Source: an uncultured Planctomycetota bacterium
GTDB taxonomy: Bacteria > Planctomycetota > J058
DNA length: 52,970 nt
Assembly: GCA_964569055.1 (NCBI GenBank)
Contig: CAZMSZ010000004.1
Coordinates: forward strand, 1-52,970
Reading direction: 5' to 3'
Part shown: positions 19,338 through 40,112 of the stretch, one piece after another
How positions within the stretch are numbered: the first letter of the stretch is position 1
How the letters are laid out: each line of letters begins with the position of its first letter
Position numbers and translations under genes: made by a program
Notes under the pieces: generated by a model
Told to the model about the DNA's origin: nothing
Seen by the model: the letters and a program-made list of their open reading frames with translations, nothing else
Database searches by the model: none

Positions 19338-22300
19338 TCATTCGCCTCGCCGGGCCTCGAGGACGAGCGCGGTCTGGTCGGCCTCGTCGACCCGCTGCAG
19401 GAACGGCAGCAGCTCGCGGGCGTACTCCGCCGGGTCGATTCGCCCGGGCCGCAGCAGCAGGCGCCGCTCCAGCTCGACCCGGCCGCCCTCGCCGCGCCGG
19501 ATCACCAGCGAGTACTGCCCGAACCGGGCGCTCAGCCGGACGCTGGGCGGGAGCAGGGGGCAGGCGTAGGGGCCGAGCTCGACCTCCACCACGTCGTGCC
19601 GCGCCACGGGCGTGTTGAGCACGAGGTCGAACGCGCGGTGGGGGTGCGTGCCGAAGGTCCGCCGCAGGTGCGTCGGCGAGAGCAGGCCGCGCAGCTCGAG
19701 GGCGCCGTCGCCGCGCGGGCGCACCGCCTTGGGCGCCAGGAACCGCAGCGTGAACGCGAGCGGCACGCCGGGGACGTCGACGTCGGGCGTGGCGCTGTCG
19801 AGCAGGCGCGCCCCCGGCTGGAGCTCGGCCGCCTGGCCGGCGAAGAACGCGCGGAGCTGCGCCGCGGGGGCGCTGGCGAGCGACTCCTTGGAGCGGTAAT
19901 AGCCGAACCCGGGCAGCGAGCGGGTGACGCTGACCTCGGCGTCGCCGCCCGCCTGCAGCGAGTAGCGCGCGGTCGAGCGCTGGGTCTCGGCCTCGAGCCC
20001 CGCGCTGGGGATCACGTCCAGCCAGCCCCCCGCGGGGTCGCACACGAACACCGGCGCCTCGTAGAGCTGGAACGGGAGGCTGCCGTACGGAGCGAGCCGG
20101 TGCGCCTCGGGCAAAAGGTAGTGCGGCGCCCCGTCGCGCGGCGCGACCCGCAGCAGCGGCAGCGAGAAGTGGGACGGCTCGAGCGCGCCCCACTCCACGC
20201 CGTCGGCGTAGGGGCTCGGCCCCGCCAGCGCGACGTCGTGAGGCACGTCGGCCGCGAGCAGCAGGGCCCGCAGGAGCGTCGTCTTGGAGCCGCCGCGCGC
20301 CGCGAGGATCTGGGCCGCCGTGTACCCGCCCGAGCTGCCGGTGACGTGGTCCTGCACGAACCGATACAGCCGCCGGGCGCGCTCGAGGTCGCTCGTGGTC
20401 CCCTCGGTCAGCGCCGCCGCCTGCCGGGCGACGGTCGGGGAGACCGCCCCGAGCGCGAGCGCCTGCTCGACGTAGAGGCTCGCCATCTCGTCGAGGGTCC
20501 GCCGCTCCACCACCTTGATCCAGGGGAGCAGCTCGTCGCGGTCGGGCGCGAACGGCTCGGGCTCGTGGCGCGGCTGGTCCTTGGCCGTGTAGACGTGCAC
20601 CTGCCAGGGGCCGCGCTGCAGCGTGCGCCGGGTGATCCCGGGGCGGTCGAGGTTGCGCTCCACGATCTCCACCGGCGCGTCTTGGTGCACGATCAGCACC
20701 CAGCGAGAGAGCCAGAACGGCTCGCGCAGGTCGGGGTCCTGGAAGTAGAAGGGGCCGTTCGTGTACTGGAAGTCGGGCGCGCCGCGCTCGAACCGGAACG
20801 CGTGCTCGACCACCGCCCCGGGCGCGAGGCCGGGCATCTCGAACCGGTCGGTGCCGGTCCGGATCGGCTCGAGCACCTCCCCCGAGGGGGTGATCGTGCG
20901 CACCTCGAGGAGCTCGCCCGCCCGCGGGCGCGAGCCGTAGCGCTCCTTGCCGTTCTCGTCCAGGATCCGCCACACCTGGTGCACCACGTCGACGGTGGAG
21001 GCGTCAGGGTAGATCTTGGTCACGGTCTGGTCGAACAGACACACCGTGCTGGCGCGCGGCCAGTGCTCGGCGCCCGGCGAGCGCTCGAGGATCTCCGCCA
21101 GCTCGGGGGTCCACTCCTCCCAGAACCGGTCCTCGACCCCGCCGAGCGCCGCGAGCAGCTCGCGCGCCTCGTGCAGCTCGGGCCGCTCCGCGACGAGCCC
21201 CTCCAGCAGCGCGACCGCCTCGGCCCGCGCGCCAGCGTCGGGCCCGGCCTCGGCCAGGCGCTTCGCCAGCGCCAGGCGCCGCCCGACGTCGTGGGGCTGC
21301 GCCTCGAGCCAGCGCCGCATGGCGGCGAGCTCGCGGGCGGGGTTCCCCAGGCTGCGCCACACGCGCGCCTCGAAGTCGGCCCGCTCGCCGGGGGTGGGGT
21401 CGCCCAGCGAGGTGAGGGCGGCCAGCGCCGCCAGCGCGCCCGGCCCGTCCGCGGCGCGCAGCGCCTGCTGCAGCCGCTCGCCCACCACCCACAGCGCGGC
21501 CTGGTCCTGCGCCAGCAGCCGCTCGCGCGCGGCCTGCGCCTCGGCGCGCCGACCGCGCCGCTCGAGCAGGTCGGCCTCGGCCCGCAGGAGCGCGGGGGGC
21601 GCGGGGTCCGGCGCGGGCGCCGAGGCCAGCACCTGCTCCGCGGGGTGCAGCCAGCCCTCCTCCACCAGCGCGCGCACTAGCGCCAGGCGCGTCGCCAGGT
21701 CGCCGGGCGCGCGGGCCAGGCCCTCCTCGAGCAGCAGCGCGCCCTCGGTCACGCGGTCGTCGCGGAACGAGAAGCGCGCCAGCGCGCGCAGCGCGGCGCA
21801 CGACGCGGGGTCGAGGGCGCGCGCCCGCTCGTACGCGGTGCGCGCCCGCTCGCGCTGCACCGCCTGCGGGAGGTGCTCGGCCTGCTCGGCCGCGCGCCCC
21901 GCGAGGTTCCACAGCCAGGCCTGCTCCTCGAGCGTGGGCGCCGCCGCGCGCAGGTCCTGCAGCGCCACGTCGGCCTCCTCGGACAGGCCGGCCTCGAGCA
22001 GCGCGTGCACGTACAGCCCGCGCCGCTCGCCCGCGGGCTCCTGCGCGAGCGCCGCCAGCGCGTGCTGCAGCAGGGGCGCGCTGGGCTCGGTGCGCGCCGC
22101 CGCCACCTCGGCAGGGGTGGCGCTGCAGGGCAGGACGAGCGGGCCGCCGGCGGGCGTGGTCAGGCGCACGTGCACGCTGGGGCCGGACCCGCCGGCCACC
22201 TTGATCAGGAGCCGGTTCCACCCGGCGACCAGCCGGATCGGCAGCCGCACCTCGTGGCTCAGCCGCTCGCGCGCGCGGTCGATCGTCCCGACGTGGGCCC

Positions 22301-23024
22301 GGTTCACCCACACCTTCGCCGACGGGCCGCGGTAGACGAGCTCGGCCTCCAGCGGGCCAGGGGCCTCGACGTGCGTCAGCACGTAGCAGGCCTGCCCGTC
22401 GCCCTCGGCCGCGTCGGAGAGGTCGAGGTGGGCCGCCCGCGGCTCGCGGGTCAGCCGCTCCCAGCCGCGCTCGCCGCGCAGCGCGGCGAACCGCTCGGCG
22501 GGGTCGACCACCGCCCGCGCCGCGGCGAGCTCGGGCGGGAACACCCGCTCGAGCGCGGCCCGGCGGGCGACCCCGAACGGGCCCGCCACGAGCGCCTCGC
22601 CCAGGAGCCCGCGCTCCGCGGTCAGCGCGTAGGCGCCCGCCCGGTCGCCCGCCGCCAGGCGCAGGCGGGCGACCAGCTCGGCCAGCTCGTCGAAGTTGGC
22701 GTGGTCGCGCACCCGCTCCAGGAGCGGCTCCAGGCGGGCCCGCGCCGCGGCGAGGCCGCCGGGCACCAGCTCGATCACGTTGCGCAGGGCGGTGAGGGCG
22801 TACGGCACGCGCGGGTCGCGCGGGTCGGCCTCCAGCGCGCGCAGCAGCGCCTCCTGCGCGGCGGCCGGGTCGCCGTGGTCGAGCACCGGGTCGAGCAGCG
22901 GCTCGCGGGCCGCCGCGGCGGGCTCGGCCGGCTGCGCCGCGGCCGGCTCGCCCAGCGGGGCCGCGAGCAGCAGGAGGGCCATGAGCGGCGCCGCGCGCCG
23001 CGAGCAGTTGGCGAGGTCGCTCAC
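19338..23024 (-). CDS. Secreted TPR / DUF3857-like / transglutaminase-like protein, Cys-less paralogue
   Basis: Track ORF trimmed to the GTG at 23024, which overlaps the TGA of the upstream gene (GTGA). The predicted signal peptide is MSDLANCSRRAAPLMALLLLAAPLGEPAAAQ. The protein is colinear with the upstream paralogue: jelly-roll-like block, TPR-like Ala-rich repeats, DUF3857-like block, transglutaminase-core-like block. The core reads ARGGSKTTLL where the paralogue has FGDCKDKATL. Confidence 0.8.
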   Translation of the reverse strand: MSDLANCSRRAAPLMALLLLAAPLGEPAAAQPAEPAAAAREPLLDPVLDHGDPAAAQEALLRALEADPRDPRVPYALTALRNVIELVPGGLAAARARLEPLLERVRDHANFDELAELVARLRLAAGDRAGAYALTAERGLLGEALVAGPFGVARRAALERVFPPELAAARAVVDPAERFAALRGERGWERLTREPRAAHLDLSDAAEGDGQACYVLTHVEAPGPLEAELVYRGPSAKVWVNRAHVGTIDRARERLSHEVRLPIRLVAGWNRLLIKVAGGSGPSVHVRLTTPAGGPLVLPCSATPAEVAAARTEPSAPLLQHALAALAQEPAGERRGLYVHALLEAGLSEEADVALQDLRAAAPTLEEQAWLWNLAGRAAEQAEHLPQAVQRERARTAYERARALDPASCAALRALARFSFRDDRVTEGALLLEEGLARAPGDLATRLALVRALVEEGWLHPAEQVLASAPAPDPAPPALLRAEADLLERRGRRAEAQAARERLLAQDQAALWVVGERLQQALRAADGPGALAALAALTSLGDPTPGERADFEARVWRSLGNPARELAAMRRWLEAQPHDVGRRLALAKRLAEAGPDAGARAEAVALLEGLVAERPELHEARELLAALGGVEDRFWEEWTPELAEILERSPGAEHWPRASTVCLFDQTVTKIYPDASTVDVVHQVWRILDENGKERYGSRPRAGELLEVRTITPSGEVLEPIRTGTDRFEMPGLAPGAVVEHAFRFERGAPDFQYTNGPFYFQDPDLREPFWLSRWVLIVHQDAPVEIVERNLDRPGITRRTLQRGPWQVHVYTAKDQPRHEPEPFAPDRDELLPWIKVVERRTLDEMASLYVEQALALGAVSPTVARQAAALTEGTTSDLERARRLYRFVQDHVTGSSGGYTAAQILAARGGSKTTLLRALLLAADVPHDVALAGPSPYADGVEWGALEPSHFSLPLLRVAPRDGAPHYLLPEAHRLAPYGSLPFQLYEAPVFVCDPAGGWLDVIPSAGLEAETQRSTARYSLQAGGDAEVSVTRSLPGFGYYRSKESLASAPAAQLRAFFAGQAAELQPGARLLDSATPDVDVPGVPLAFTLRFLAPKAVRPRGDGALELRGLLSPTHLRRTFGTHPHRAFDLVLNTPVARHDVVEVELGPYACPLLPPSVRLSARFGQYSLVIRRGEGGRVELERRLLLRPGRIDPAEYARELLPFLQRVDEADQTALVLEARRGE

Positions 23025-26000
23025 TGGTTCGCCTTCCCGCGCCCGAGCCGGACGCGCTCCTTCTCCGCCCGCTCCACCGCCTCGACGAACCGGCGGAAGG
23101 CGGGGTAGTCCTCGGCCGCGATCCGGTGCGCCTCGACGCGCAGCACGCGCCGCACGCGCAACGTGCTCCCCTCGCGCTGGTAGGTCCGCTCGTAGCGCCA
23201 CTGCGGCCCCTCGAGCTTCACCGCCTCGGGCACGCTCTCGAGCGAGAGCTCGGGCGGGAGCTGGTAGATGACCTCCTCCTCCACGCCCGACGGCACCGGG
23301 AGCACGAGGTCGTGGGTCCGCTCGACGTCGGCGGCGTAGCCCGACAGCCGGCCGCCGCGCAGGTAGACCAGGTCGAACAGCCAGCTCCGCACCTCGGCCA
23401 GCTCGAGCCCGCCGCCCACCTGGCGCACCATGCGGGGCACCTCGACCTCCGCCTTGACGCGCACGGGCGCCTCGAGGTCGTTCACGTCGCTGGTCTCGAC
23501 GGCGGTCACGCGCGCGCCGCTGAAGCTGGCGCCGAAGCGCGGCTCGAGCCGCTCCTTGCGCAGGCCGGCCGTGTGCATCCAGTCGCGCAAGATGCTCTCG
23601 TACGTCCCCGTCCCCTCGATCGTGGCGGTGAACGAGGCCCCGCCGTCGGGGGCGAGCCGCACCTCGTGGCGCTCGCGCAGCGAGTTGGCCTCCGAGCCGC
23701 GATAGGGGATCTCGCGCAGCACCCCGCCCTGCGGCGTGATCACGACCACCTTGGCGCCGTAGTCCATGGCGGGCAGCGCCGGGTAGGGGTGGTACTCGGC
23801 CGTGCCGTCCAGGAAGATCCCGCCCTCGCCGTGTTCGACCCACGAGATGCAGTGGTTGAAGTGGCCCATGAGCGGGAGGCTGAGGTCCTCGCGGCCGCGC
23901 GCCTCCTCGCCGAAGATCAGCACCGGGTGCGCCTCGATCCCGACCACGCCCAGCATGGTCCCGATCAGGGTCGCCTTGTCCTTACAGTCGCCGAAGCGGC
24001 GCGCGAAGATCTTGGTCGCGTTGTAGGGCTTGAAGCCGTGGATCCCGAACTCCCAGGCCGCGTTGTAGCGGACCTCGGTGATCACGAAGTGGTAGATCCG
24101 GCGGATCCGCTCCTCGTCACTGGTGGCGCCGGCGCACAGCTCGTGGACCTTGGCCCGGATCGCGTCGTCCGCCTCGTGCTGGTCGGCCACCAGGCCCCAG
24201 TACCAGCGCGCGAACGCGTCCCAGTCGCCGAAGGTGGAGACCTGCACCTGCGGCACCAGCTCCTTGTCCCAGGGCATGTGGGGCTCGCGCTCGAGCGGCG
24301 CGATCCCCGTGCGCTCGAACACGTGGACCACCTGCTCGCCCTCCTCGCGCCGCTGGTGCAGGGCGGGGTCGAGCCCCGGGGTGTGGAAGAACAGTTGCTT
24401 GGTCTTGGGCGCGATCAGCACGAACCGCCGGCGATCGATCGCCTGGTCCGCCTGGAACTCCGCGACCTCGCCGTAGTAGTCGCCGAAGAAGCCCTGCTGC
24501 AGGTCGTCCACCCGCCAGCGGACCTCGATCACGTCGCCCGGCTCGAGCGGGGGGAAGCGGACGGTGTAGCCGCGGTAGCCCGAGAACTCGCCGCGCGGCG
24601 CCCGGCCCGCCCCGACCGGCGCGTCCTCGTACCCGCCGCCCCGACGCCACACGCGGGCCCGCTGGAACAGGATGCGCTGCTCGGTCGAGAACGGGGCGGT
24701 GAAGCTGACGAGGTCGCGCGCGCCCTGCCGGTTCTCGACCCGGAACACCTGCTGGGTGAACTGGCTCTGCGTCCCGTCCGGGTTGACCCGCGCCACCTCC
24801 TGCAGGAGCAGGTAGCGGTGGGTGCGGCGCGGGTCGAGCGGCGTGCTCTTCGCCGCGGCGACCAGCGGCTCGGGGTCGATCACCCAGGCCGCCTGGAACG
24901 ACGCGACGCGCTCCTGGTGCCGCGCGCGGTACTCGACGTATTTCTTCAGCTCGACCCGCTGCGGGTCGAGGCGCAGGGCCTGCGCGAACAGCTCGTCGGC
25001 GAGCGCCTCGTTCCCGGTCCGCTCGGCGAGCTCGCCGCGCGCCTGCGTCAGCGCGGCGTCGTCGGGCGCGAGCGCGAGCGCCTCGTCGAGCGCGGCGCCG
25101 GCCTCCTCGAGCCGCCCCATCCGCTCGAGGAGCTGCGCGCGCGCGTAGCGCAGCCCGGTGGAGTAGGGCGCGACCTCGCCGGCGCGCGTCAGCAAGGTGA
25201 GCGCGAGCTCGGGCCGGCCGGCCGCCTCATGCAGCCCGGCCAGCGCGTGGAGCGCCCCGGCGTCGGTCCGGTCGAGCTCGACCAGCCGGTCGAGCAGCTC
25301 CACCTGCCGGCGCACGTCGCCGCGCGAGCGGGCCACCCCGAGGGCGGCGCGCAGTACGGGCGCCGGGATGCAGGCGGCCTCCTCGCGCTGCACGCGCGCC
25401 TCCCAGGCGTCGAACAGCGCCTCGGTGGCGGCCACGGCCAGCGGCGCGAGCCCGCGCGCGCGCAGCAGGTCGAGCTCGAGCAGGCGCGCCCCGAGGTCGT
25501 CCGGGTAGGTCGCGAGCGCCGGCTCGAGCAGCCGCCGCGCCTTCTCCACGTTCTGCAGCTCGCGCAGGTAGTAGTGCGCCAGGGCGGCGCGGGCCTGCGC
25601 GTGGTGCGGCGCCACGGCGATCGCCTGCTCGAGCGTGCGGCGGCGCGCGTTCTCCTCCTTGTTGACCGAGAACTCCACGTCGCGCTGGCGCGCGCGCGCC
25701 AGGAGGAGCAGCAGCCCGGGGCGGTCGGGCGCGAGGGCGACCGCCGCCGCGAGCGCCGCCTCGTCGGGGTGCTGGGTGCGGTCGTGCGCCTCGCGCGCGT
25801 GCTGGAGCAGGCCGAGGTGGTAGTAACCCCGCCAGTCGGGCGTGCGCTTCACCTGCGCCGCGAGCACCTCGAGCGCGCCGCGCTCGACCTCGACCGACGC
25901 GGGCGGAGTCTGCTCGAAGGCCGGGCGGGCGGCGATCTCGGCCGCGGTGGCGAACCGCACCCCCGCGGCCGGGCCGCCCTCGGGCGCGCTCACGCGCAGG

Positions 26001-27031
26001 CGGAAGCCCCAGTCGCCCGTCTGGTCGGCGACCTTCAGCAGGACCTCGTTCCAGCCGGGCGCGAGCACCACGCCCACCGCGTCCTGCTCGGCGCGGTAGG
26101 GACGGCGCACGTCGGCGGTGTGGACCTGCTCGCGGTTGACCCACACCGCGACCGCCTCGTCCGAGCCGAGCCGGAGCGCGACCGGCGTCGGCTCCGCCAC
26201 GTGCAGGTAGGCGACCGCGTAGGCGAGCCCCTGGTCCTGCGGGCGCAGCAGCGCGTCGAGGTCGACCGCCCCGCCGGGCGGCAGGTCGACGGGGAGCGCG
26301 CGCCAGGAGACCGGGCGCGACTTGCCGGGGTAGGACGCCTGCGGGTCGAACGGCTCGACCTCCGGCGGGTAGGCCTCGGCGAAGCCGGTGCCGCGCTCGT
26401 TGTCGAAGGGGCCGATCAGGAACCACGAGCGCACCACCCCGAGCTCGGCGTCGAGGGCCGCCGCGGCCTCACGCTCGCCGAGCTGGCGCAGGACGTGGGC
26501 GAGCTGGGTGCGCGCGAGGTCGCGCGCCAGCGGGCTCAGCCCCGGGGCGTCGATCACCCGCTCGAGGAGCGCGGCCTGCTCGCGGGGCGCGAGCACGTGC
26601 TCGCCCACCAGCGCCAGCCGCACCAGGTAGACCTCGGCGCGGGCGCCGGCCTCGGCCGGCGTGAGCGCCCCCGCCCGGGCCGCGAGCAGCAGGTGCTCGA
26701 GCGCGCCCGCCAGCGCGCGGACGGCCCCGCGCAGGTCCCCCTCCCCCTCGAGCGCCAGCGCGGCCTCCTCGCGCCGGTCCGCCAGGGGGACCGCCACCGG
26801 CGCCCCGGGCGCGCGCACCGCCAGCACCTCGCCCAGGGGCAGCCGGACCCGCCAGCCGTCGCCGGCGGCGCCGGTGAGCTCCTCGGCCTCGACCGCCAGG
26901 TCCCACAGGGACAGCGCGGCGCCGCCGCGCCGCACGACCTGCGTCGGCTCACCGAGGTCTTGCGCCGGCGCGAGCGGCGCGAGCGCGAGCAGCGCGGCCA
27001 GCGCGAGCGGGGCGGAGCGGGAGGGCGTCAT
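23021..27031 (-). CDS. Secreted TPR / DUF3857-like / transglutaminase-like protein with catalytic Cys
   Basis: Track ORF trimmed to the ATG at 27031 (MTPSRSAPLALAALLALAPLAPAQD, signal peptide). Transglutaminase-core motif RRFGDCKDKATLIGTMLG, with the Cys codon at 23984-23986, followed by HFNHCISWVE and IFLDGTAEY. TPR-like repeats occupy the middle third. Confidence 0.85.
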   Translation of the reverse strand: MTPSRSAPLALAALLALAPLAPAQDLGEPTQVVRRGGAALSLWDLAVEAEELTGAAGDGWRVRLPLGEVLAVRAPGAPVAVPLADRREEAALALEGEGDLRGAVRALAGALEHLLLAARAGALTPAEAGARAEVYLVRLALVGEHVLAPREQAALLERVIDAPGLSPLARDLARTQLAHVLRQLGEREAAAALDAELGVVRSWFLIGPFDNERGTGFAEAYPPEVEPFDPQASYPGKSRPVSWRALPVDLPPGGAVDLDALLRPQDQGLAYAVAYLHVAEPTPVALRLGSDEAVAVWVNREQVHTADVRRPYRAEQDAVGVVLAPGWNEVLLKVADQTGDWGFRLRVSAPEGGPAAGVRFATAAEIAARPAFEQTPPASVEVERGALEVLAAQVKRTPDWRGYYHLGLLQHAREAHDRTQHPDEAALAAAVALAPDRPGLLLLLARARQRDVEFSVNKEENARRRTLEQAIAVAPHHAQARAALAHYYLRELQNVEKARRLLEPALATYPDDLGARLLELDLLRARGLAPLAVAATEALFDAWEARVQREEAACIPAPVLRAALGVARSRGDVRRQVELLDRLVELDRTDAGALHALAGLHEAAGRPELALTLLTRAGEVAPYSTGLRYARAQLLERMGRLEEAGAALDEALALAPDDAALTQARGELAERTGNEALADELFAQALRLDPQRVELKKYVEYRARHQERVASFQAAWVIDPEPLVAAAKSTPLDPRRTHRYLLLQEVARVNPDGTQSQFTQQVFRVENRQGARDLVSFTAPFSTEQRILFQRARVWRRGGGYEDAPVGAGRAPRGEFSGYRGYTVRFPPLEPGDVIEVRWRVDDLQQGFFGDYYGEVAEFQADQAIDRRRFVLIAPKTKQLFFHTPGLDPALHQRREEGEQVVHVFERTGIAPLEREPHMPWDKELVPQVQVSTFGDWDAFARWYWGLVADQHEADDAIRAKVHELCAGATSDEERIRRIYHFVITEVRYNAAWEFGIHGFKPYNATKIFARRFGDCKDKATLIGTMLGVVGIEAHPVLIFGEEARGREDLSLPLMGHFNHCISWVEHGEGGIFLDGTAEYHPYPALPAMDYGAKVVVITPQGGVLREIPYRGSEANSLRERHEVRLAPDGGASFTATIEGTGTYESILRDWMHTAGLRKERLEPRFGASFSGARVTAVETSDVNDLEAPVRVKAEVEVPRMVRQVGGGLELAEVRSWLFDLVYLRGGRLSGYAADVERTHDLVLPVPSGVEEEVIYQLPPELSLESVPEAVKLEGPQWRYERTYQREGSTLRVRRVLRVEAHRIAAEDYPAFRRFVEAVERAEKERVRLGRGKANQ

Positions 27032-27168
27032 ACGGTCACCTCGCGGCGTCGCCGGGGTCAGCCGGCGGGGCCGCGATTTGAGCACGAACGCGCCGAACCG
27101 GGGCGTGGTATGACGCGGTTGCGCGGCGTCACGGACTCGGTCAGCTTGGGCCCAGCGAGGATGCGACG

Positions 27169-28944
27169 GTGAGCTGGAACTTCTACGCGCTGCAGCGACT
27201 CTCCGACCTCCACTCGCATCCGGAGCCCGGGCGGACGCTCGGGACGGCGATCTTCCGGCTGGCCGAGGTCCCACCGCCCGGCACCTACACCCTGAACGTC
27301 TACGAGCGCGATCAGCAGCTGAGCGAGAGCGCGCCCGAGCGGCGCCGCGGGCGCCAGCCTCGGGGCAGCGAGGACGACCTGCTCGGCTCGATCGAGGCCA
27401 CCGTCGAGGGCCGCACCGTTCGGTTCGCCGAGGAGGTGACCGGCCGCACCGGGTCCGACGGCGACCTGCAGGTCACCGTCGTGATCATGCTCGCAGGCGA
27501 GACCGAGCCCCCGACGAACGAGCGGCGCTGGACCCTGGGCGTCCCGCCGACCGCCCGGGACGACGACGACCAGTGGCTCGAGATCGGGTTGCGGCCCGAG
27601 GGCCAGGACTGGGGCCATCAGGCGCCCGTCCGCCTGCGCGACGGAGATGGCGAGGACCCCGCCTGGTGGCCCGCAGGCAGCGAGACGGGCCCCGCCTGGG
27701 ACGGGCTGAGCGAACCCGAGGAGGGGCAGGTCTGGCACGGACGAAAGTTCGAGCGACGCCGCAGGCTACGGATCCGAGCGGGGGACAAGGGCGTGGTGTT
27801 CACCGTGGCCAAGCGCCGCGGCGCCGGCCCCGACGAGTGGGGCTTCAGGTACGGCGGGAGGAACGCCTATACCTCCCTCGTGGATGCGTGCGACGCGATC
27901 GCGGCCGAGTTCCGCGCCGAGGGGGATCACTACCGCGCGCTGGGCACGGAGTGCTGCCGGGCGCTCAAGGAGGGGGGGATCTCGTCGATCAACACCTACG
28001 ACAACCAGTTCGTCACGCTGGGCATGGGCTGGGGCGCGATGGCGAACACGGCCGTGTTCGAGCGGCTGCGCGGTCGCACCGCCGAGCTGATGCGCGAGGT
28101 GCTCGCCCCGCTCGCCTGCTTCGACGATCAGGCGCGCTGGAACACCGAGCAGTTCGCCCCCCGGACGTCGCCTCAGTGGGACGACGCGGCGCGCGAGCTG
28201 CGCCTCGCCACGCGGGTCTACGAGCGCTACGTCCAGCTCGCCGAGCACCGGTCCCACTGCTTCGAGCTGGCGCGCGCGAACATCGTCTCCTACGTGGAGA
28301 AGGACTGCGTGCACGCCTCGACCGCCGAGGACTTGGCCTGGGCGAACGCGCTCGCGAGCGCTCCCGATGGCCCGCCGGAGCGACGGGCGATCCTCACCAT
28401 GGTGAGCTACTGCCACCACGGTCGCCCCAACTGGCTGCGGCGGATCGCGCGCGAGCTGTACTACCTGTTCGACGAGGACGAGCTGGCGCGTCAGATCGAG
28501 CTGCTGGGCGTGGAGCCCGAGCTGTTCAGCGCGCCCGAGACGGCGGCGGTGGCCCGCGCGGCGCTCGCGCTCAAGCGCCACGCCGAGATCTCGTGGCGAC
28601 GCCGCCAGAGCTTCAGCTTCAAGCTCGTCGAGGCCTCGCTCGGCCGCAAGATGCAGTGCTTCGAGGAGGTCCTGGGCGAGGACACCGGCGCCCCGACGCC
28701 GTTCGCCACCGAGGTCGCGGCGAGGATCCTCCCGTCGTTCGTCGGGAGGCCTGGCCGGACCTGGGCGACCGAGAACATCTGGCGGATCGACACGAGCAAG
28801 CCCGCGGATGGCCGCGTGTACCTCGAGTGGCGCCGGCGGGGCCCGAGGGGGGGACGCGTCGGTCCGATGCTCTACGTGGACTTCGGTCCGCCGCTCCTGT
28901 CGTCCGACGACCCCTGCAACCCCGGCCCCCCGCCGGCCGAGTGA
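27169..28944 (+). CDS. Hypothetical 591-aa protein with a GH24 (phage lysozyme)-like motif
   Basis: GTG start with GAGGAT RBS and strong GC3 bias throughout. No signal peptide or TM. Residues ~267-289 read KEGGISSINTYDNQFVTLGMGWG. No other family recognised. Confidence 0.7.
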   Translation: MSWNFYALQRLSDLHSHPEPGRTLGTAIFRLAEVPPPGTYTLNVYERDQQLSESAPERRRGRQPRGSEDDLLGSIEATVEGRTVRFAEEVTGRTGSDGDLQVTVVIMLAGETEPPTNERRWTLGVPPTARDDDDQWLEIGLRPEGQDWGHQAPVRLRDGDGEDPAWWPAGSETGPAWDGLSEPEEGQVWHGRKFERRRRLRIRAGDKGVVFTVAKRRGAGPDEWGFRYGGRNAYTSLVDACDAIAAEFRAEGDHYRALGTECCRALKEGGISSINTYDNQFVTLGMGWGAMANTAVFERLRGRTAELMREVLAPLACFDDQARWNTEQFAPRTSPQWDDAARELRLATRVYERYVQLAEHRSHCFELARANIVSYVEKDCVHASTAEDLAWANALASAPDGPPERRAILTMVSYCHHGRPNWLRRIARELYYLFDEDELARQIELLGVEPELFSAPETAAVARAALALKRHAEISWRRRQSFSFKLVEASLGRKMQCFEEVLGEDTGAPTPFATEVAARILPSFVGRPGRTWATENIWRIDTSKPADGRVYLEWRRRGPRGGRVGPMLYVDFGPPLLSSDDPCNPGPPPAE

Positions 28945-28953
28945 GGGCGCGCG

Positions 28954-30036
28954 ATGCCCTGGAACCACTGCGACACCGCGGAGATCCCAGACGATGCGCC
29001 CTGCCCCGAGTGCGGCGCCGCGAAGGAGGCCTGGACGCTCGAGTTCCAGGTCACCCGCGAGTTCCGGCTCCGCCGCGCGCCGGCGCTGCGACTCGAGCTC
29101 CTCGACGCGCAGGAGCAGGGCGTCTCCGGCGAGCCCTACCGCGTCGAGCTGCCCGGCGGCGAGGTGGTGGAGGGAGAGCTCGACGAGGAGGGGCGCGCCA
29201 AGCACGAGCTGACGCAGCTCGGTGAGTGCACGATCACCTTCACCGCCCGCGCGCGCGGACGGGTCGTCCCGTACGTGCCGCCCGAGGAGCGCGACGAGGG
29301 CGAGGCTGCCTCGGCCGAGCCCGAGGAGCCCGAGCCCGAGGAGGCCGAGGGCGAGCCGCCGAGCTTCTCCCGCCCGGCCAAGGGGCGCCACGTGTTCCAG
29401 CTCCGCGCCGGGCTGGTGCTCCAGCTGACCCTGTTCGACGAGGAGGGGGAGCGCCCGCTGCCCTTCGCCTCGTACACGCTCGAGGCGGAGGACGGGACCC
29501 GGTTCGAGGGCCAGACGGACGGCCGCGGACGCCTCGACCACGGCGCCGTCGACGCGCCGCGCTTCACGCTCACGGTCACGGCGGAGCGCCCCCCGGCCGA
29601 TCCGGACGACGAGGACGACGAGGACGCCGCCCCCGAGGAGCTCGAGGCGACCCTGGTCGCTCCGGCGGTGCTCCCCGAGGACGCCTTCATGCGCGTGCAG
29701 GTCCCGGGCGTGCCGGCGGCCACCCAGGCGCCGCACGAGCTCGACGACGAGCCCACGTGCGACCGCGCCATCAAGGTGCGCGTGCAGACGGCGAGCGGCG
29801 AGCCGGTCCGCGACGTCGAGTACGTGCTGTACTCGGCCACCGTGGTGCGCCGCGGCCGGACCGACGCCGACGGCTACTTGATCGAGCAGGCGCTCCCCGA
29901 CCAGGGCGACCTGCACGTGAAGCTCGCCGACGGCCGCCTGCTCTACTTCGAGGGAGAGGACGACGACCCCGAGAGCGAGGAGTTCTTCGCCGACCCCGAC
30001 GAGGGCGACGACCATGCGCCCGAGGAGGCGCCCTAG
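28954..30036 (+). CDS. Hypothetical protein: N-terminal zinc-ribbon-like head, three beta-sandwich-like repeats, acidic linkers
   Basis: ATG 9 nt after the upstream stop. MPWNHC-x10-CPEC head. Three ~55-aa repeats (e.g. LQLTLFDEEGERPLPFASYTLEAEDGTRFEGQTDGRGRLDHG). The linkers and tail are extremely acidic. Confidence 0.7.
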   Translation: MPWNHCDTAEIPDDAPCPECGAAKEAWTLEFQVTREFRLRRAPALRLELLDAQEQGVSGEPYRVELPGGEVVEGELDEEGRAKHELTQLGECTITFTARARGRVVPYVPPEERDEGEAASAEPEEPEPEEAEGEPPSFSRPAKGRHVFQLRAGLVLQLTLFDEEGERPLPFASYTLEAEDGTRFEGQTDGRGRLDHGAVDAPRFTLTVTAERPPADPDDEDDEDAAPEELEATLVAPAVLPEDAFMRVQVPGVPAATQAPHELDDEPTCDRAIKVRVQTASGEPVRDVEYVLYSATVVRRGRTDADGYLIEQALPDQGDLHVKLADGRLLYFEGEDDDPESEEFFADPDEGDDHAPEEAP

Positions 30037-30038
30037 CC

Positions 30039-31202
30039 ATGGCGTACCGCTGCGCCGACTGCGCCGAGCTGATCGCGCCCGCGCAGGAGGTCCCGACCAC
30101 CTGCCCCACCTGCGGCGGCGACGTCGAGCGCGTCTCGACCGTGCCGGCCCAGGCCGCGAGCGAGGACGGCGCGGTCGCCCGCGTGAGCGACCCGCCGACC
30201 CGCCTCACCTCCTCGCAGGAGGAGAAGTTCCAGCACTTCCTCGAGCACACCGTCCGCGCCGGCTCGCGCTACGGCGGGTGCGGCGGGTTCGGCTCGGGCA
30301 CGTGGGGCTACGACGCCGAGCACCACACGTGGACCGTCCGCAAGCGAGTCCGGACGGAGGTCGACCTCGGCCCTCAGATCTACTTCGGCTGTGTGGGGCT
30401 CGTCGCCTCGTTCCTGACCTACTGGTACAACTACAACGAGGACGCGGGGCCGGTCTGGTCGCTCGCCGTCGGCCCGGGGATCTCGTACGCGCTCGCGGCC
30501 GAGCTCGGGCCCGGCACCGTCAACGAACGCGAGGGCGTGCTCGGGCTGCGCCCCGCGGTGGCGGATCCGGTCGAGCTCGACTGCCCAGGTCAGTTCACCA
30601 CCTGGCGCTCGTTCGTCAGCGCCACGCAGGTCGGCGGCGAGCAGGTCCCGCTGGTCGGCACCGCGGCCAGCTTCATCAACGACGGCCTGCTGCGCTACGT
30701 CTGCATGCGGGGGGGCAGGGCGCGGTTCGAGTGGGACCCCTCCTACTTCGCGAACTTCAACATCTGCGTGATCTCCAGCCACCACGTGATCCTGTGGGTC
30801 AAGCGCGCGCCCGACGGTGGGCCGCCGCGGGGGGACGGGACCGACCAGATGTGGCGCCTCGGCGCCGACATCAACGGCAAGGTCTTCGGACGAGGCCTGT
30901 CCACGATCGGCGGGCCGACGAGCTGGGAGCTCCGCCCCCTCGCCTTCCGGACCTGCCAGGTGGATCACCGCCACCGCGGGCCGGCCCGCGAGCGAGGCGC
31001 CCGCGGGCTCGCCACCCGGATCCGGGAGGATCTCCCCGGGTTCGAGGAGCTCCCGCGCGCGTATCAGCGCGAGCCGGTCGCGTGGGAGTCCGAGAGGCTC
31101 GGCTGCGCGGCGCCGGTGGCGATCTACAAGCTGCGCGACCTCGAGGGCACGGCGGCGCCGTTCCTCGACCGGCCGAGCCGCCCGATCCAGCTCCTGGAGT
31201 GA
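30039..31202 (+). CDS. Hypothetical protein: N-terminal CxxC-x13-CxxC zinc ribbon plus an unknown ~340-aa domain
   Basis: Track ORF 29226..31202 trimmed to the ATG at 30039, 2 nt after the upstream stop (MAYRCADCAELIAPAQEVPTTCPTCGG). The rest is Trp/Tyr/Gly-rich with no recognisable motifs. Confidence 0.7.
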   Translation: MAYRCADCAELIAPAQEVPTTCPTCGGDVERVSTVPAQAASEDGAVARVSDPPTRLTSSQEEKFQHFLEHTVRAGSRYGGCGGFGSGTWGYDAEHHTWTVRKRVRTEVDLGPQIYFGCVGLVASFLTYWYNYNEDAGPVWSLAVGPGISYALAAELGPGTVNEREGVLGLRPAVADPVELDCPGQFTTWRSFVSATQVGGEQVPLVGTAASFINDGLLRYVCMRGGRARFEWDPSYFANFNICVISSHHVILWVKRAPDGGPPRGDGTDQMWRLGADINGKVFGRGLSTIGGPTSWELRPLAFRTCQVDHRHRGPARERGARGLATRIREDLPGFEELPRAYQREPVAWESERLGCAAPVAIYKLRDLEGTAAPFLDRPSRPIQLLE

Positions 31203-35514: not shown

Positions 35515-36234
35515 GTGCTTGCCTGGCAGCGCGTCGCGCTCGGGGTCCTGGCGGCCGCCTGGGTGGGGTGCGCCACTCCTGACCTGGGCGCGAGCGAATG
35601 GCTCCGGCTCCGAGACGTCACCCACCGCTGGGTGTACTACCCCAGCGCCCGGGTGTTCGCCTGCGACGCCCACCATCACTTCTGGGTGTATCGCGGCGGG
35701 CGCTGGCTCGAGGAGGAGCAGCTCGCGCTGGACCTCGACGGCCTCGATCACCTCCAGCTCTCGGGGCGGCCCGCCCCCGAGCCCGACCCCGACGCGCACC
35801 AGTGGGTGTTCTATCCGGGCCAGGAGGTCTACCGCTGCACGGTCCACGAGCGCTACTGGGTGCGCGTGGCGGGAGGCTGGGTGCTCCGCGACCAGGCCCC
35901 GGGCCCCCTGCCCGACGGGGTGGCCATCGCCGCGACGGGCCCCGCGCCGCACACCCTGCGCGCGAGGCACGGGCCGCGGGGTCCGGAGCTGAGCGTCGAG
36001 GCGGCGGCGCCGCACACCGCGTGGGCCGCCGACCGGCCCACCAGCCTCCGCGGCGGCGACCTCCGCCCGGTGCGGCTGCTGTCGGACACGGCGGCGCGCG
36101 CCCCGTCGCCTCACTCGATCGCGACGGTGCGCAGCTCGAGCTGGTCGAACCGCGCCGAGGCCGGCGCCGGCGGGTCGGTCGGGTCGGAAGCCACCAGGGC
36201 CGCCTCGAGCGGCGACGCGCTGCGCGGCAAGTAG
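35515..36234 (+). CDS. Putative lipoprotein with duplicated H-x-WV(Y/F)YP...C..H..(F/Y)WV motif
   Basis: GTG start preceded by AAGGAGGAG. Signal peptide with lipobox (LAAAWVGC). Two internal repeats (HRWVYYPSARVFACDAHHHFWVYRGGRW and HQWVFYPGQEVYRCTVHERYWVRVAGGW). The last 124 nt overlap the 3' end of the convergent kinase gene, so the C-terminal tail is uncertain. Confidence 0.55.
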   Translation: MLAWQRVALGVLAAAWVGCATPDLGASEWLRLRDVTHRWVYYPSARVFACDAHHHFWVYRGGRWLEEEQLALDLDGLDHLQLSGRPAPEPDPDAHQWVFYPGQEVYRCTVHERYWVRVAGGWVLRDQAPGPLPDGVAIAATGPAPHTLRARHGPRGPELSVEAAAPHTAWAADRPTSLRGGDLRPVRLLSDTAARAPSPHSIATVRSSSWSNRAEAGAGGSVGSEATRAASSGDALRGK

Positions 36235-39200
36235 AGCGGCGCCTCGAGCACCTCCACCCCATGCTCCGGATCGGGCCCGACGCGCACCGCGAGGCGGTCC
36301 CCCCGGCGCTCCAGCTCGAACACCAGCCACGAGGCGTCGGGCGACCAGGCGCGCGCCCCCAGCAGGAGCGGCGGCTGATCGCCGTGCACCAGCTCCACGG
36401 TGACCTGCGTCGCGCGGGACGCGGCGCGCTCGCGCAGCAAGACGCGCAGCTCGGGGCCTGGCTCGGCCGCGAGGCGCAGCGTCACCCCCGCGGCGCGCTC
36501 GCGCTCGGGACGAAAGCGCAGCCGCACGCGCAGCACGAGCTCGCCCCGCACGGGCGGCAGCGCCAGGCGCTCGCCGCCGCCGCCGCACGCGCGCAGGAGC
36601 GCGCCCTCCGCCGCGAGGTCGCCCAGCGTGAGGGCGGGGCGCTCGCTGGCGGGCGTCCTCACCACGGCCAGGTGCGCGGGTGCGGCGGCGAGCCGCGCGG
36701 GCGCGAGCGCGGGGAGCGCCGAGCCGCGCCAGGAGCCGACCAGCTCCAGCCGCGTCAGCCGGCCGCCCGCGCGCTGAACGAGCCGCACGTGCTCCTCGGG
36801 GCCGAGCGAGCCGGGGAGCGGCGCCCTGCGCAGGAGCGCGCCGTCCTGCCAGGCCGCGAAAGACGCGCGACCGAAGGCGACGTCGAACCGAGCGACCGGC
36901 GCCTCGGCCGCTCCCGGCTGACCGCCCACGCCGAGGCTCACGCCTGCCGGCGCGAGCAGCGAGCGCGGCGCATAGGCCTCGATCCGGAGCGGGCTCGCGA
37001 GCGTCGCCACCAGCCGGATCGAGCGTAGACCCTCGAAGGGGAACGCGGTCACGAGCGCCAGCGGGCCCTCGACCCCGCGCGGCCCGGCGGACTCCTCCGC
37101 GAACACGTCGATCCCGTCGGCCGCGCGCGGCGACGCCGCCGCGCCGAACGGGGCGATCACGCGGAGCCGACCGTGAGGCGCCGGGAGCGCCAACAGGCCG
37201 TATTGCGCGGCGAACGCCAGCCGGACCCGCGCCTCCTCGAGGGCGAGGGGATCGGCCCCGGGGACGGCCAGGGGCCCGGCCTCGGGCGCCGCGTCGGGCG
37301 CGAGCCGCAGGACCGCGAGCGAGGCCTCGAGCGCCGCCGCGTCGGCCGAGCTGGGCGCGACCGCCCGCGCGTGGCTCGCCGCGGCCGCGCCTGCGTCGTC
37401 GCCGCGGGCCACCATCCGCTCGGCGGCCGCGAGCTGGTCGTCGGGACCGAGGTCGCTGCGCGTGGCGACATGGGACTCGAAGCGGCCCTCGTCCAGCGCC
37501 GGGTCGGCCCCGGGGAGCGCGAGCAGGCCGCCCGCCAGGCGCAGCGCCGCGCGGGGCGGGCCGGCCGCGACCGGCGGCTCGGGGTCGAGGTCGTGCAGCA
37601 GCCCGAGCGCGCCGAGCGCCGCCGCGGCCGCGGCCGCCACGCGCGGCTCGGGGTCAGCGCGCAGCGGCTCGAGCCGGGCGCTCGCGAGCGCGGCCGGCAG
37701 GCCGCCGGCGCGGCTGGCCGACACCGCGAGCGCGAGGGCGGACGCCGCGCGCAGGGTGGGGCTCGGCGCGCGGGTCAGCGCCTCGAGCGCGGCGGCCTCG
37801 CGCTCGCCCAGGCGCGGCGCGAGCTCGAGGAGGGTCAGCGCGGCGGCGGGCCCGCTCGCGGCGTCGCCGGCGGCCGCCGCGGCCCAGCGGGGGAACCCCT
37901 CCAGCGGGTCGCTCGTGCCGGGCGGCGCCAGGGCGCCGAGCGCGAGCAGACTGGCTCGCGCCGCCTCGCGCAGCAGCGGCGCCTCCGCGCCCCGCGCCGC
38001 CTCGAGCCCCGCCGCCGCCGCGTCGCTCGGGAGGCGCGGGGCCGCCAACGCCGCCGCGACCCGCGCGGCGAGGGGAGCGGCGGGGTCGAGCAACACGGCC
38101 TCGGGCGCGGGGGCGCCCGCGTCGCGCCGGAGCGGCTCGCGCCGCGCGAGCCGCAGACGCAGCGCGCTCCAGCCGTCGGTCAGCGCGTCGACCGCCCCGG
38201 CCGCGAGCCACCCGTCCACCAGCTCGGCCAAGGGCGCCAGGTCGTGGGGCGCGCTGGCGAGCGCGCGCCAGCGCGCCTCCTCGGCGGTCCGGCGCCAGCC
38301 GCGCGCGTCGGCGTCGCTGGCCTCGGCGCGCGCGAGCCGGAGCGGGAGGTCGCGCGCCGCGCACCCGCCGTCGCGCGCCGCGCGGTAGGCCACCAGCGCC
38401 TCGCTCGCGCGCCCCGCGGCCTCCGCCAGTCGCCCGGCCAGGTAGTGGCCGGCGGGCGTGCGCGGGCCGTCCGCCGCGAGCGCGCTCGCGCCCACGAGCT
38501 CGTCGGGCTCGCGCCCGGCCACGAGCTCCAGCGCCGCCAGCCCTTCGCGAGGCCCGGCCGCGTCCGGCGCGAGCGCGGCCGCGCGCTCGAGGGCGGCGCG
38601 CCCCTCGGCGCGAGCCCCCTCGCCGGCGGGGCCCTGCTCGGCCGCGAGGGCGGCCGTCAGCGCGCGGGTCGCCTCCGCCCAGGACCGCTCGAGCGCGGCG
38701 GGGTCGGGGCCTCGCGGCAGGAGGGCCCCCGCGACGAACGCGGCCAGCGCGCTCAGGAGCGGCGGGAGCGCGCGCCGAGCGAGCGACGGCGCGGGGAGCG
38801 GCGGCGGCGCGGCGCTCGCGGCGCGCTCGCCGGCCCGCCAGGCCGCGAGCGCGTCGGCCAGCGCGGCGGCGCTCGGGTAGCGCCCCTCCGGCTCCTTCTC
38901 GAGGCAGCGCAGGCAGATCGCCTCGAGGGTCGGGTCGAGCCCGGGCCGCAGCGCGCTCGGGCGCGGCGGCGGCCGGCGCACGACCGCCACGACCACGTTC
39001 ATGGAGGCGTCGCCGCCGAAGGGCGCCTCCCCGGTGAGCGCCTCGAACAGCGTCGCGCCCAGGGCGTAGACGTCGCTGCGCGCGTCGATCCGCTCCTTCT
39101 GTCCGCGGACCTGCTCGGGCGGCATGTAGGCCGGCGTGCCGAGCATCTGCCCGGTGGCGGTCAAGCTGAGCGCCTCGTCCACGGCCTTGGCCAGGCCGAA

Positions 39201-40112
39201 GTCGGTGACGAGCGGCTCGCCCGCCCCGTCGATCATGACGTTGCTCGGCTTGAGGTCGCGATGCAGCACGCCCTGCTCGTGGGCCGCGTGCAGCGCCCGC
39301 GCCAGCTTCTCGACGAGCTGGGCCGCCTCCTCGGGCGCGAGCGGGCCGGCGCGCTCGATCCGCGCCCCGAGCGACTCGCCCTCGATCAGGTCCATGGCTA
39401 TGAAGCTCTGCCCCTGATCGGTGCCGACCTCGTGCACGGCGACGATGTTGGGGTGCCGCAGGCGCGCCGCCGCGCGGGCCTCGACGCCGAACCGCTGCAG
39501 GGCGTGCGCGTCCGCGCCGAGCACGACCTTGACCGCCACCTTGCGCCCGAGGGCCACGTGCCGCGCCACGAACACCGCGCCCATGCCGCCGCGCGCCAGC
39601 TCCTCGCCCAGCTCGTAGGGGCCGAGCCGTCGCGGGCGCGCCGCGGGGACCCAGGTGCGCGCGGCGGGCGCCAGCGGACGGTCGATCGTCACGTCCGCCG
39701 GCGCCGGGCTGGGCGGCGCGAGCGGCCGCTCCACGGTGAGGTCGGGCGCGTCGCCGCCCGGCCCGCCCGCGGGCGCGCCGTAGCGGTCCGTGCCCGGCGC
39801 CGCGCCGTAGCGGTCGGCGACGGGCGCGGCGCGGAGGCGATCGCTCGCAGGCGCGCCGCCCGGGCGCTCGGCCTGCGGCGACCGGGCGGCCGGGGCCGCC
39901 GCGCCGAGCGCGCGCAGGTAGGCCCCCTCGAGCTCACGGACCGCGGGAGCGGGCAAGCGCTCGCGGAGGAGCGACAGCAGCTCGCGCGCGGCGCCGGCGG
40001 CGCGCAGCCGGGCCAGCTCGGCACGAGCGGCGTGGGCCGCCGGCTCGGAGAGGAAGCCCCGCTCGATCGCGAACCGCAGCACGGCCTGCTCGGCCGCCTC
40101 GCGCGGCTGCAC
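36111..40112 (-). CDS. Large Ser/Thr protein kinase with long Ala-rich helical-repeat C-terminal region
   Basis: GTG start directly after the stop of the upstream FHA-kinase gene. Kinase motifs: LARGGMGAVFVARH, VAVKVV, HRDLKPSNVMI, DFGLAK, GTPAYMPPE. About 900 aa of TPR/HEAT-like Ala/Leu-rich sequence follow, then a beta-rich C-terminal ~200 aa. Confidence 0.9.
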   Translation of the reverse strand: MQPREAAEQAVLRFAIERGFLSEPAAHAARAELARLRAAGAARELLSLLRERLPAPAVRELEGAYLRALGAAAPAARSPQAERPGGAPASDRLRAAPVADRYGAAPGTDRYGAPAGGPGGDAPDLTVERPLAPPSPAPADVTIDRPLAPAARTWVPAARPRRLGPYELGEELARGGMGAVFVARHVALGRKVAVKVVLGADAHALQRFGVEARAAARLRHPNIVAVHEVGTDQGQSFIAMDLIEGESLGARIERAGPLAPEEAAQLVEKLARALHAAHEQGVLHRDLKPSNVMIDGAGEPLVTDFGLAKAVDEALSLTATGQMLGTPAYMPPEQVRGQKERIDARSDVYALGATLFEALTGEAPFGGDASMNVVVAVVRRPPPRPSALRPGLDPTLEAICLRCLEKEPEGRYPSAAALADALAAWRAGERAASAAPPPLPAPSLARRALPPLLSALAAFVAGALLPRGPDPAALERSWAEATRALTAALAAEQGPAGEGARAEGRAALERAAALAPDAAGPREGLAALELVAGREPDELVGASALAADGPRTPAGHYLAGRLAEAAGRASEALVAYRAARDGGCAARDLPLRLARAEASDADARGWRRTAEEARWRALASAPHDLAPLAELVDGWLAAGAVDALTDGWSALRLRLARREPLRRDAGAPAPEAVLLDPAAPLAARVAAALAAPRLPSDAAAAGLEAARGAEAPLLREAARASLLALGALAPPGTSDPLEGFPRWAAAAAGDAASGPAAALTLLELAPRLGEREAAALEALTRAPSPTLRAASALALAVSASRAGGLPAALASARLEPLRADPEPRVAAAAAAALGALGLLHDLDPEPPVAAGPPRAALRLAGGLLALPGADPALDEGRFESHVATRSDLGPDDQLAAAERMVARGDDAGAAAASHARAVAPSSADAAALEASLAVLRLAPDAAPEAGPLAVPGADPLALEEARVRLAFAAQYGLLALPAPHGRLRVIAPFGAAASPRAADGIDVFAEESAGPRGVEGPLALVTAFPFEGLRSIRLVATLASPLRIEAYAPRSLLAPAGVSLGVGGQPGAAEAPVARFDVAFGRASFAAWQDGALLRRAPLPGSLGPEEHVRLVQRAGGRLTRLELVGSWRGSALPALAPARLAAAPAHLAVVRTPASERPALTLGDLAAEGALLRACGGGGERLALPPVRGELVLRVRLRFRPERERAAGVTLRLAAEPGPELRVLLRERAASRATQVTVELVHGDQPPLLLGARAWSPDASWLVFELERRGDRLAVRVGPDPEHGVEVLEAPLYLPRSASPLEAALVASDPTDPPAPASARFDQLELRTVAIE

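Follow-up and report, generated by a model that had tools for sequence, protein, structure and literature searches.

A candidate orphan cargo cassette of contractile injection systems in an uncultured Planctomycetota bacterium

What might three adjacent genes do together when none of their products can be assigned to a named family? This question is raised by a contig of 52,970 nucleotides from an uncultured Planctomycetota bacterium (GenBank assembly GCA_964569055.1, contig CAZMSZ010000004.1), analysed at full length and hereafter called the window. Three co-directional genes lie on its plus strand: A (27169-28944), B (28954-30036) and C (30039-31202), encoding proteins of 591, 360 and 387 residues. 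An original prediction, made from the letters of the DNA, had proposed that they form an undescribed multi-component system, possibly a muralytic or effector module with zinc-ribbon adaptor or neutraliser partners. Our comparative analysis suggests, with a probability of roughly 55%, that they make up an orphan cargo cassette serving a contractile injection system, most probably a type VI secretion system (T6SS); the bacterial cell wall, or peptidoglycan, is its likely target.

A, B and C are real genes, nearly unique in public data. The window has a G+C content of 76% and abounds in long spurious open reading frames (ORFs), and it is the G+C content by codon position that marks the three genes as coding: third-position values are 0.941, 0.967 and 0.961 for A, B and C, versus 0.52-0.76 for overlapping alternative ORFs. 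The gaps measure 9 nt between A and B (28945-28953) and 2 nt between B and C (30037-30038), in agreement with the coordinates, spacing and third-position bias initially reported. A GAGG-type Shine-Dalgarno motif stands 7-12 nt 5' of each of the three starts, and the GTG start of A is backed by conservation of the N-terminus (MSWNFYALQ / MSLNFYALQ / MTWHFYALQ). The promoter presumably lies in the 137-bp divergent intergenic region between A and the upstream minus-strand gene (27032-27168), whose equivalent is 133 bp long in the closest relative, locus L001. A promoter scan did not find the sigma-70 consensus and a terminator consensus scan found nothing, both scans being uninformative at this GC content (75%).

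As for families, the failure to name any was borne out: no curated cut-off of Pfam, NCBIfam or PADLOC is reached by the three proteins, PDB sequence searches are empty, and PHROGs provide only a phrog of unknown function, for B. A, B and C also lack any signal peptide, as had been noticed, and any transmembrane segment (maximum 19-residue hydropathy, 1.39). A and C have one non-self relative each in a set of 5.8 billion protein clusters, at 71% and 80% identity respectively, that of C being P0004. Both are encoded on a single contig, L001, which must come from a related organism, since the entire locus recurs there together with its flanking genes. When 1.84 billion representatives were searched exhaustively with HMMER, a profile of A retrieved 10 non-self clusters only; a scan of genome contigs with A found nothing, a scan of viral contigs (IMG/VR) showed no relatives of B or of the cassette, and tblastn searches of plasmids with B and with the C-terminal module of A were empty.

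The first informative component is B, which consists of a zinc-ribbon head, three beta-sandwich repeats separated by acidic linkers and an acidic tail. The repeats and linkers had been recognised from the outset, and the repeats could be delimited to residues ~44-102, 155-211 and 247-329. Members of its family (P0006-P0011) are 45-74% identical, with relatives of B at 45-51% identity, and several end in a PG_binding_1 domain. The head (residues 1-40, 28954-29073), already identified as MPWNHC-x10-CPEC, follows the pattern MPWxHC-x10-CPxCG..K..WT[LV]EF.VTR and contains an HC...CxxC zinc-binding signature, with H5, C6, C17 and C20 as the ligands expected from the sequence. Eleven positions are invariant across seven family members (M1, P2, W3, H5, C6, C17, P18, C20, K24, W27 and T28), and a profile of the head, run on 5709 ORFs, matches only B-family loci (11 loci fetched).

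Behind the head, repeat 1 (residues 44-102, 29083-29259) is a beta-sandwich of the type found at the C-terminus of VgrG, the T6SS spike protein. When species-representative genomes and metagenomes were scanned with the B alignment, 40 further loci were found that share only this first repeat of ~55 residues. The domain forms the C-terminal extension of VgrG in L011, and stands at the VgrG C-terminus or at most 400 bp after it in L012, where it is a separate gene right after VgrG, and in L040-L043; this amounts to 6 loci where it is fused to VgrG or encoded less than 400 bp after it. VgrG is also present within 10 kb of the domain in L017-L020, L027 and L054, and at 10 of the 23 loci having at least 3 kb of upstream sequence. 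Repeat 1 of window B shares 43-54% identity with the VgrG extension in L011 and with the small proteins encoded after VgrG, and an independent profile built from VgrG-linked sequences only matches window B residues 45-100 at 5.3e-15. The linked VgrGs score 490-679 bits with TIGR03361 (cut-off 186), which makes them unambiguous T6SS TssI/VgrG proteins, and have PAAR and Tla1-like neighbours. Loading platforms for cargo are recognised as C-terminal extensions of VgrG or PAAR, and this is where the B domain is found.

The remainder of B leads to the same operons. Repeat 2 (residues 155-211, 29416-29586) is matched by a transthyretin-like (TTR) profile at 2.8e-5 and by the independent VgrG-only profile at 0.019. 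Repeat 3 (residues 247-329, 29692-29940) is of the type that precedes PG_binding_1 in partners encoded in VgrG operons (partner profile 'pg', 0.034). It is followed by PG_binding_1 in B relatives, while window B has an acidic tail in its place (29950-30033). In 14 of 32 loci, the gene directly downstream of the B-type domain encodes a protein with LysM-like, beta-sandwich and PG_binding_1 domains that corresponds in sequence to the C-terminal half of the B family. Since repeat 1 and the C-terminal half thus match separate VgrG-operon genes, B is a fusion of two VgrG-operon accessory proteins, with a zinc-ribbon head of its own in front.

Some further features of these sequences deserve mention. 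Repeat 2 of B matches phrog_5348, of unknown function, at 1.9e-10, yet B relatives are not found in IMG/VR. Downstream of the TTR and peptidoglycan-partner genes, L020 (10902-12443) and L012 (10897-12585) encode OmpA-like proteins with PG_binding_1; the one in L020 also has a Phage_base_V domain (gp5 OB-fold), so that, unusually, a spike element and wall-binding domains are joined in one protein. In L011, right after the VgrG-TTR fusion, a gene at 10926-12272 lies between two LysM/beta-sandwich/PG_binding_1 genes. Its 448-aa product displays metallophosphatase-like motifs by eye (GDxxD...GNHD...GHTH), with no Pfam match at E<=0.001, and is a candidate T6SS cargo.

A connection between A and B emerges from a distant lineage. 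In Sandaracinus amylolyticus (CP011125.1, L027), an operon of order g197 - g213 - P0016 is divergent from a VgrG-TPR-PAAR/RHS cluster of a T6SS. The C-terminal domain of g197 is 51% identical to window B residues 45-85, and g213, composed of LysM-like, beta-sandwich and PG_binding_1 domains, matches the C-terminal half of B relatives, so that g197 and g213 are the counterparts of the two halves of B. P0016, the third gene, encodes a protein with the C-terminal module of A. The same components are thus found in a different order and fusion state next to a T6SS spike, and for this reason we regard this locus as the strongest evidence that A and B may work together, in a contractile-injection context.

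A few kb downstream of this operon (L027:15022-17465, minus strand) there is a pair of the CBASS (cyclic-oligonucleotide-based anti-phage signalling system) type, a DncV-like nucleotidyltransferase and a SAVED effector, with a large helicase-like gene. Proximity to CBASS could be taken to mean that the trio acts in anti-phage defence or abortive infection, with zinc ribbons as sensors and lytic effectors, as could the rarity and patchy distribution of a cassette that is inserted between housekeeping genes. We nevertheless hold this to be highly improbable: the links to VgrG and to extracellular contractile injection systems (eCIS, see below) are specific, PADLOC and viral contigs provide no matches or relatives, and nucleotide-sensing, NTPase and nuclease domains are absent.

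What, then, would an injection system carry? Protein A has two parts. Its N-terminal domain (residues ~1-188, 27169-27732) is beta-rich, with 8 strands in the AlphaFold2 (AF2) secondary structure (at a low predicted confidence, pLDDT 50-68). It is confined to A proteins that precede a zinc-ribbon B, being conserved in P0002, P0012, P0013 and P0015; from this co-occurrence only, it could be a B-docking domain. More distant relatives match A only over the C-terminal ~400 residues, which we call the A module (residues ~189-591, 27733-28941; alignment A5, 10 sequences). In window A numbering, E268, G269, S272, N275, D278, T283 and G287 are invariant, and H417 and H471 nearly so; the recurrent motifs are EGGxSAINTYDxxxFTLGxG, AAYLxHGR, LLKLHAQR and a C-terminal YxDFGP.

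The most conserved of these motifs, KEGGISSINTYDNQFVTLGMGWG (27967-28035), with E, D and T invariant in the 10 members, had been described as lysozyme-like. By eye, the spacing of E268, D278 and T283 does resemble that of E11, D20 and T26 in T4 lysozyme, but the GH24/T4 lysozyme identity had to be abandoned: hhalign gives it a probability of 0.5%, with an alignment in a different register. The A-module profile has no PDB match at E<=10, and a Pfam scan of the 10 members at the same threshold shows nothing consistent.

The company that the A module keeps is more informative. Its N-terminal partners are the A-type beta domain, DUF4157, a DUF4157+DUF4347+PG_binding_1 series or a coiled-coil region, and in some proteins the module stands alone. 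As in polymorphic toxins, a single C-terminal module is therefore combined with different N-terminal trafficking domains. In P0017 the module follows eCIS_core/DUF4157, and the gene is the last of an eCIS operon, after CIS_tube and AAA ATPase genes; in P0014 it comes directly after DUF4157, DUF4347 and PG_binding_1; and P0016 belongs to the VgrG-adjacent Sandaracinus operon. Because DUF4157 at the N-terminus, a toxin at the C-terminus and a place at the 3' end of eCIS operons constitute an established architecture of eCIS toxins (PMC8213781), the A module can be said to occupy the toxin position of polymorphic cargo proteins. Just downstream of A, where a polymorphic toxin would have its cognate immunity gene, five lineages have B, and across A-module loci no gene is conserved except those for B-type domains. 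We propose that the module is an undescribed toxin-type domain of ~400 aa and that it probably acts on the wall of the target cell. That it is fused to PG_binding_1 in P0014 suggests the wall as target; a cell-wall connection had been anticipated in the original prediction, and is supported by PG_binding_1 in B relatives and in this one A relative.

These architectures also raise the possibility that the trio provides cargo for an eCIS rather than for a T6SS, A and C being loaded in a phage-tail-like particle with the help of B for loading or targeting. The fusion of the A module to eCIS_core/DUF4157 and its place in the final gene of an eCIS operon speak for this, and toxins of eCIS are often devoid of immunity genes (PMC8213781), matching the situation here. 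However, every spike linked to a B-type domain is a T6SS TssI/VgrG (TIGR03361), with Gp5_trimer_C and DUF2345 domains and PAAR-Rhs or Tla1-like neighbours; A, B and C have no DUF4157; and the window has no eCIS genes. Window A, having neither DUF4157 nor a CIS gene nearby, does not itself look like an eCIS toxin, a description that suits only its distant relatives P0014 and P0017. We consider delivery by an eCIS rather unlikely, and keep T6SS as the preferred system.

How far does the trio hold together in other genomes? A zinc-ribbon B is encoded immediately downstream of every full-length A, in five lineages; besides the window, full-length A proteins occur in L001, L004, L010 and L058. The window and L001 have A, B and C in tight co-directional succession. 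In L004, A (559 aa, 32% identical) and B are followed by an unrelated protein of 683 aa, C', without any Pfam or PDB match. Three marine metagenome loci (L007, L008 and L058) have A, a B that carries PG_binding_1, and then a protein with an HEFGH motif, C'' (499-520 aa). Two loci come from one metagenome-assembled genome labelled Planctomycetota: L003, where B and C'' stand without A, and L010, where A and B are cut by the contig edge. Finally, B follows a Ser/Thr kinase gene in L029. The co-occurrence of the trio, initially recommended as a check, is observed for A and B, while C is replaced by C' or C''.

C is therefore the variable position of the cassette, exchanged for unrelated proteins in other lineages: C in the window and L001, C' in L004, and C'', of 499-549 aa, in L003, L007 and L058. 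These exchangeable genes downstream of B are putative effectors, and no conserved immunity gene was found with them. In the window, C comprises a CxxC-x13-CxxC zinc ribbon (30045-30134) joined by a linker to an orphan body (30204-31199). Its head, which had been noted as CADC-x13-CPTC, has sub-threshold matches to Zn_ribbon_8, DUF7130 and FmdB (21.9-23.8 bits versus cut-offs of 31-35 for FmdB/Zn_ribbon_8), and the CxxC...CxxC motif is conserved in the orthologue. We also considered that B and C might share homologous zinc ribbons as a common delivery head; this was rejected, as the profile of the B head misses C at E<=100. A resemblance of the GCVGLV...SHHV stretch of the C body to NlpC/P60 or papain-like peptidases was not confirmed: Pfam, NCBIfam and PDB provide no match, and with a single orthologue at 80% identity conservation is uninformative.

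The alternative third gene is better represented. C'' (L003:6740-8389, L007:1729-3291, L058:5365-6864) has a very acidic N-terminus, a conserved HPxCG...QT[LI]C, the HEFGH motif and then ATEG[YF]xExY. These motifs invite comparison with metalloproteases of the anthrax-LF/M34 type (HEFGH...EGxxExY), an assignment we did not retain, as it is a guess at the level of motifs and Pfam and PDB show nothing significant for the C'' profile. C'' is probably an undescribed family of zinc metallopeptidase-like cargo.

The base composition of the trio (72.3-74.5% GC) is slightly below that of its flanks and the window average, and in L058 the cassette sits between argS and kinase genes. Both observations would fit the acquisition of the three genes as one mobile unit.

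The constancy of B next to changing partners can be read in another way, B being mainly a neutraliser or immunity-like protein whose acidity inactivates A and/or C in the cytoplasm of the producer, with no tethering to a spike. The net charge of B is -55, it is the constant partner of different putative enzymes, and adaptor and inhibitor roles can coincide, as Tle1 is inactivated by VgrG binding (PMC10433429). Yet A and C are themselves acidic (net charges -13 and -5), an inhibitor ought to change along with a single toxin rather than pair with unrelated ones, and PG_binding_1 has no obvious use in a purely cytoplasmic inhibitor. On balance a neutraliser role appears unlikely. The effector module with a zinc-ribbon adaptor envisaged initially comes close to the comparative evidence for A and B, but C is not a conserved adaptor or neutraliser partner, its position being variable.

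We return to the injection cassette, for which the following scheme can be proposed. B would be a secreted adaptor, its 40-residue zinc-ribbon head taking the place that VgrG, or some other N-terminal region, has in related cassettes, and this head would dock B to the injection machine. Repeat 1 would tether the cargo, either A through its private N-terminal beta domain, or the variable downstream protein, or both, and the further repeats, accompanied by PG_binding_1 in most relatives, would act in the periplasm of the target. A would be a wall-directed cargo effector and C a second, exchangeable one. While homologies, the fusion/fission relationship and gene neighbourhoods are established, we infer from them that B physically holds A, C or both, that a spike carries them out of the cell and that peptidoglycan is attacked enzymatically. 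The lack of signal peptides and transmembrane segments, in a family endowed with peptidoglycan-binding domains, fits delivery by an injection machine.

Several observations weigh against this scheme. Genes of T6SS and eCIS are absent from the 53-kb window and from every contig carrying a zinc-ribbon B (up to 14 kb), and the cassette is not accompanied by any conserved immunity gene. A is encoded upstream of the adaptor, unlike the usual adaptor-effector-immunity order, and window B has no PG_binding_1. The transthyretin-like fold of the B-type repeat is suggested by weak clan matches (CarboxypepD_reg at 5e-4, on repeat 3, and SpaA at 0.08) and by context. A and C are at best putative enzymes, as neither has a Pfam or PDB relative and the lysozyme test was negative. 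Structural models, which had been recommended as a check, were made for A and C with AF2, but from alignments of two sequences they reached pLDDT values of only 44 and 34 and were unusable.

Could the producer itself be the target? A self-directed module for wall lysis or remodelling, serving for instance programmed lysis for particle release or development, would make sense of the peptidoglycan-binding domains of the family and of the missing immunity gene; lysis is also how eCIS particles are released, and eCIS toxins may contribute to it (PMC8213781). We find this quite unlikely, given that no holin, signal peptide or transmembrane segment is available to bring the proteins to the wall, and that the exchange of the third gene and the linkage to VgrG speak for conflict between cells.

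If the injection cassette is pursued further, a more ambitious and distinctly tentative version can be formulated. The B head may be a new delivery or marker domain comparable to RIX, MIX and FIX, allowing a detached TTR platform to ride the spike without fusion to VgrG, and the A module may be a toxin of new fold, directed at peptidoglycan and employed by T6SS and eCIS alike. Jointly they would form an immunity-less two-effector cassette of high-GC lineages, Myxococcota or Planctomycetota to judge by the named relatives.

The surroundings of the trio turn out to be of little help. Upstream, on the minus strand, lie two adjacent giant paralogues of ~1340-1500 aa with TPR repeats (19338-23843 and 23021-27031). 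The second, which borders the intergenic region, combines TPR, DUF3857, Transglut_core and DUF3858 domains. It most likely starts at the ATG at 27031, a choice that gives it a predicted signal peptide, MTPSRSAPLALAALLALAPLAPA, and a GAGGTGA ribosome-binding site. Downstream, an NPCBM protein is encoded on the minus strand, convergent to C. Domain matches thus agree with the earlier description of the neighbours as transglutaminase-like and NPCBM proteins. A functional tie to these secreted proteins was rejected: this neighbourhood is kept only in the locus of one close relative (L001, L002) and is absent from more distant loci. Since the genes flanking A-B loci differ from lineage to lineage (adh_short, argS, kinases), the neighbours in the window are incidental.

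Elsewhere the window is rich in genes for Ser/Thr kinases, FHA, ECF (extracytoplasmic function) sigma and TPR proteins, with at least five kinase genes in its 53 kb; taken with the G+C content of 76%, this gene content would suggest Myxococcota or a similar lineage. In a 1037-aa protein (44189-47302, plus strand), two Ser/Thr kinase domains stand in tandem, and a beta-propeller is weakly matched behind them. GC content is unusually high at 36001-40000 (81.5%), with an AT skew of 0.225 at 36-38 kb. This region falls inside the gene of a 1333-aa Ser/Thr kinase (36111-40112, minus strand), and the anomaly suggests a low-complexity region. A SUFU-family protein (PF05076, 1.4e-29) is encoded at 7506-8105 on the minus strand, beside a Ser/Thr kinase gene (8124-9542), and no toxin gene was seen adjoining it; in bacteria, SUFU-like proteins frequently act as the immunity component of polymorphic toxin systems.

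The interest of the cassette extends beyond this contig. Effectors of T6SS and eCIS are hard to find as they have no universal signals, and each new marker or adaptor domain exposes orphan effectors that would otherwise be invisible. Three such handles from outside Pfam are provided here: the zinc-ribbon head; the VgrG-type beta-sandwich with its LysM/PG-binding partner, which recur beside VgrG in several phyla; and the ~400-aa domain in toxin position of T6SS- and eCIS-linked proteins. None of the three is described in Pfam or in the literature searched. Should A prove to be a wall-degrading enzyme, it would represent a new antibacterial fold, and the fusion/fission counterpart in Sandaracinus offers a cultured organism in which to test the model.

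How does the cassette compare with known systems? The closest parallel is found in Vibrio, where orphan three-gene operons encode secreted adaptors composed of RIX and TTR domains, RIX replacing VgrG or PAAR and TTR tethering the neighbouring effector (Kanarek et al. 2023, PMC10435454). As there, the present orphan operon consists of three genes and is located apart from T6SS clusters, a small head replaces VgrG/PAAR before a TTR-like platform, and the neighbouring gene is exchangeable. The differences are that the head is a zinc ribbon here whereas RIX is arginine-rich; that B has two further beta-sandwich repeats and, in relatives, PG_binding_1; and that an effector-like gene also stands upstream (A), no immunity gene is recognised and the present trio is known from its genes alone. 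A second parallel is provided by the TTR extensions of VgrG and PAAR, which are internal adaptors for cargo effectors: in enteroaggregative Escherichia coli (EAEC) the TTR of VgrG binds Tle1 (PMC10433429). Repeat 1 of B is homologous to C-terminal domains of TssI/VgrG (L011, L040-L043), the EAEC TTR being compared by position and presumed role; in contrast to the latter, the B domain is detached from VgrG and belongs to a separate multi-domain protein. Thirdly, eCIS toxins have an N-terminal DUF4157 and a C-terminal toxin, are encoded at the 3' end of eCIS operons and in many cases lack immunity genes (Geller et al. 2021, PMC8213781). In P0014 and P0017 the A module stands C-terminal to DUF4157, in the place of the toxin, P0017 being encoded at the 3' end of its operon, and no immunity gene is adjacent; window A differs in having a beta-rich N-terminal domain in place of DUF4157, and no eCIS genes nearby.

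The last comparison concerns the presumed activity. Vibrio cholerae VgrG-3 and the Tge-type effectors are peptidoglycan glycoside hydrolases delivered by T6SS. The likeness lies in spike-associated delivery, as proposed here, and in the coupling of a putative wall-degrading domain to a peptidoglycan-binding domain, and the difference in that the A module has no sequence or profile similarity to lysozyme-like families or PDB entries. The original idea of an undescribed multi-component system thus stands in so far as the trio is an operon-like unit of family-less proteins, but its kind is not wholly undescribed, the domains of B leading to VgrG cassettes and that of A to eCIS cargo. The trio is best filed as a known kind of cassette, orphan contractile-injection cargo, whose novelty lies in its zinc-ribbon-headed TTR adaptor and two family-less cargo proteins.

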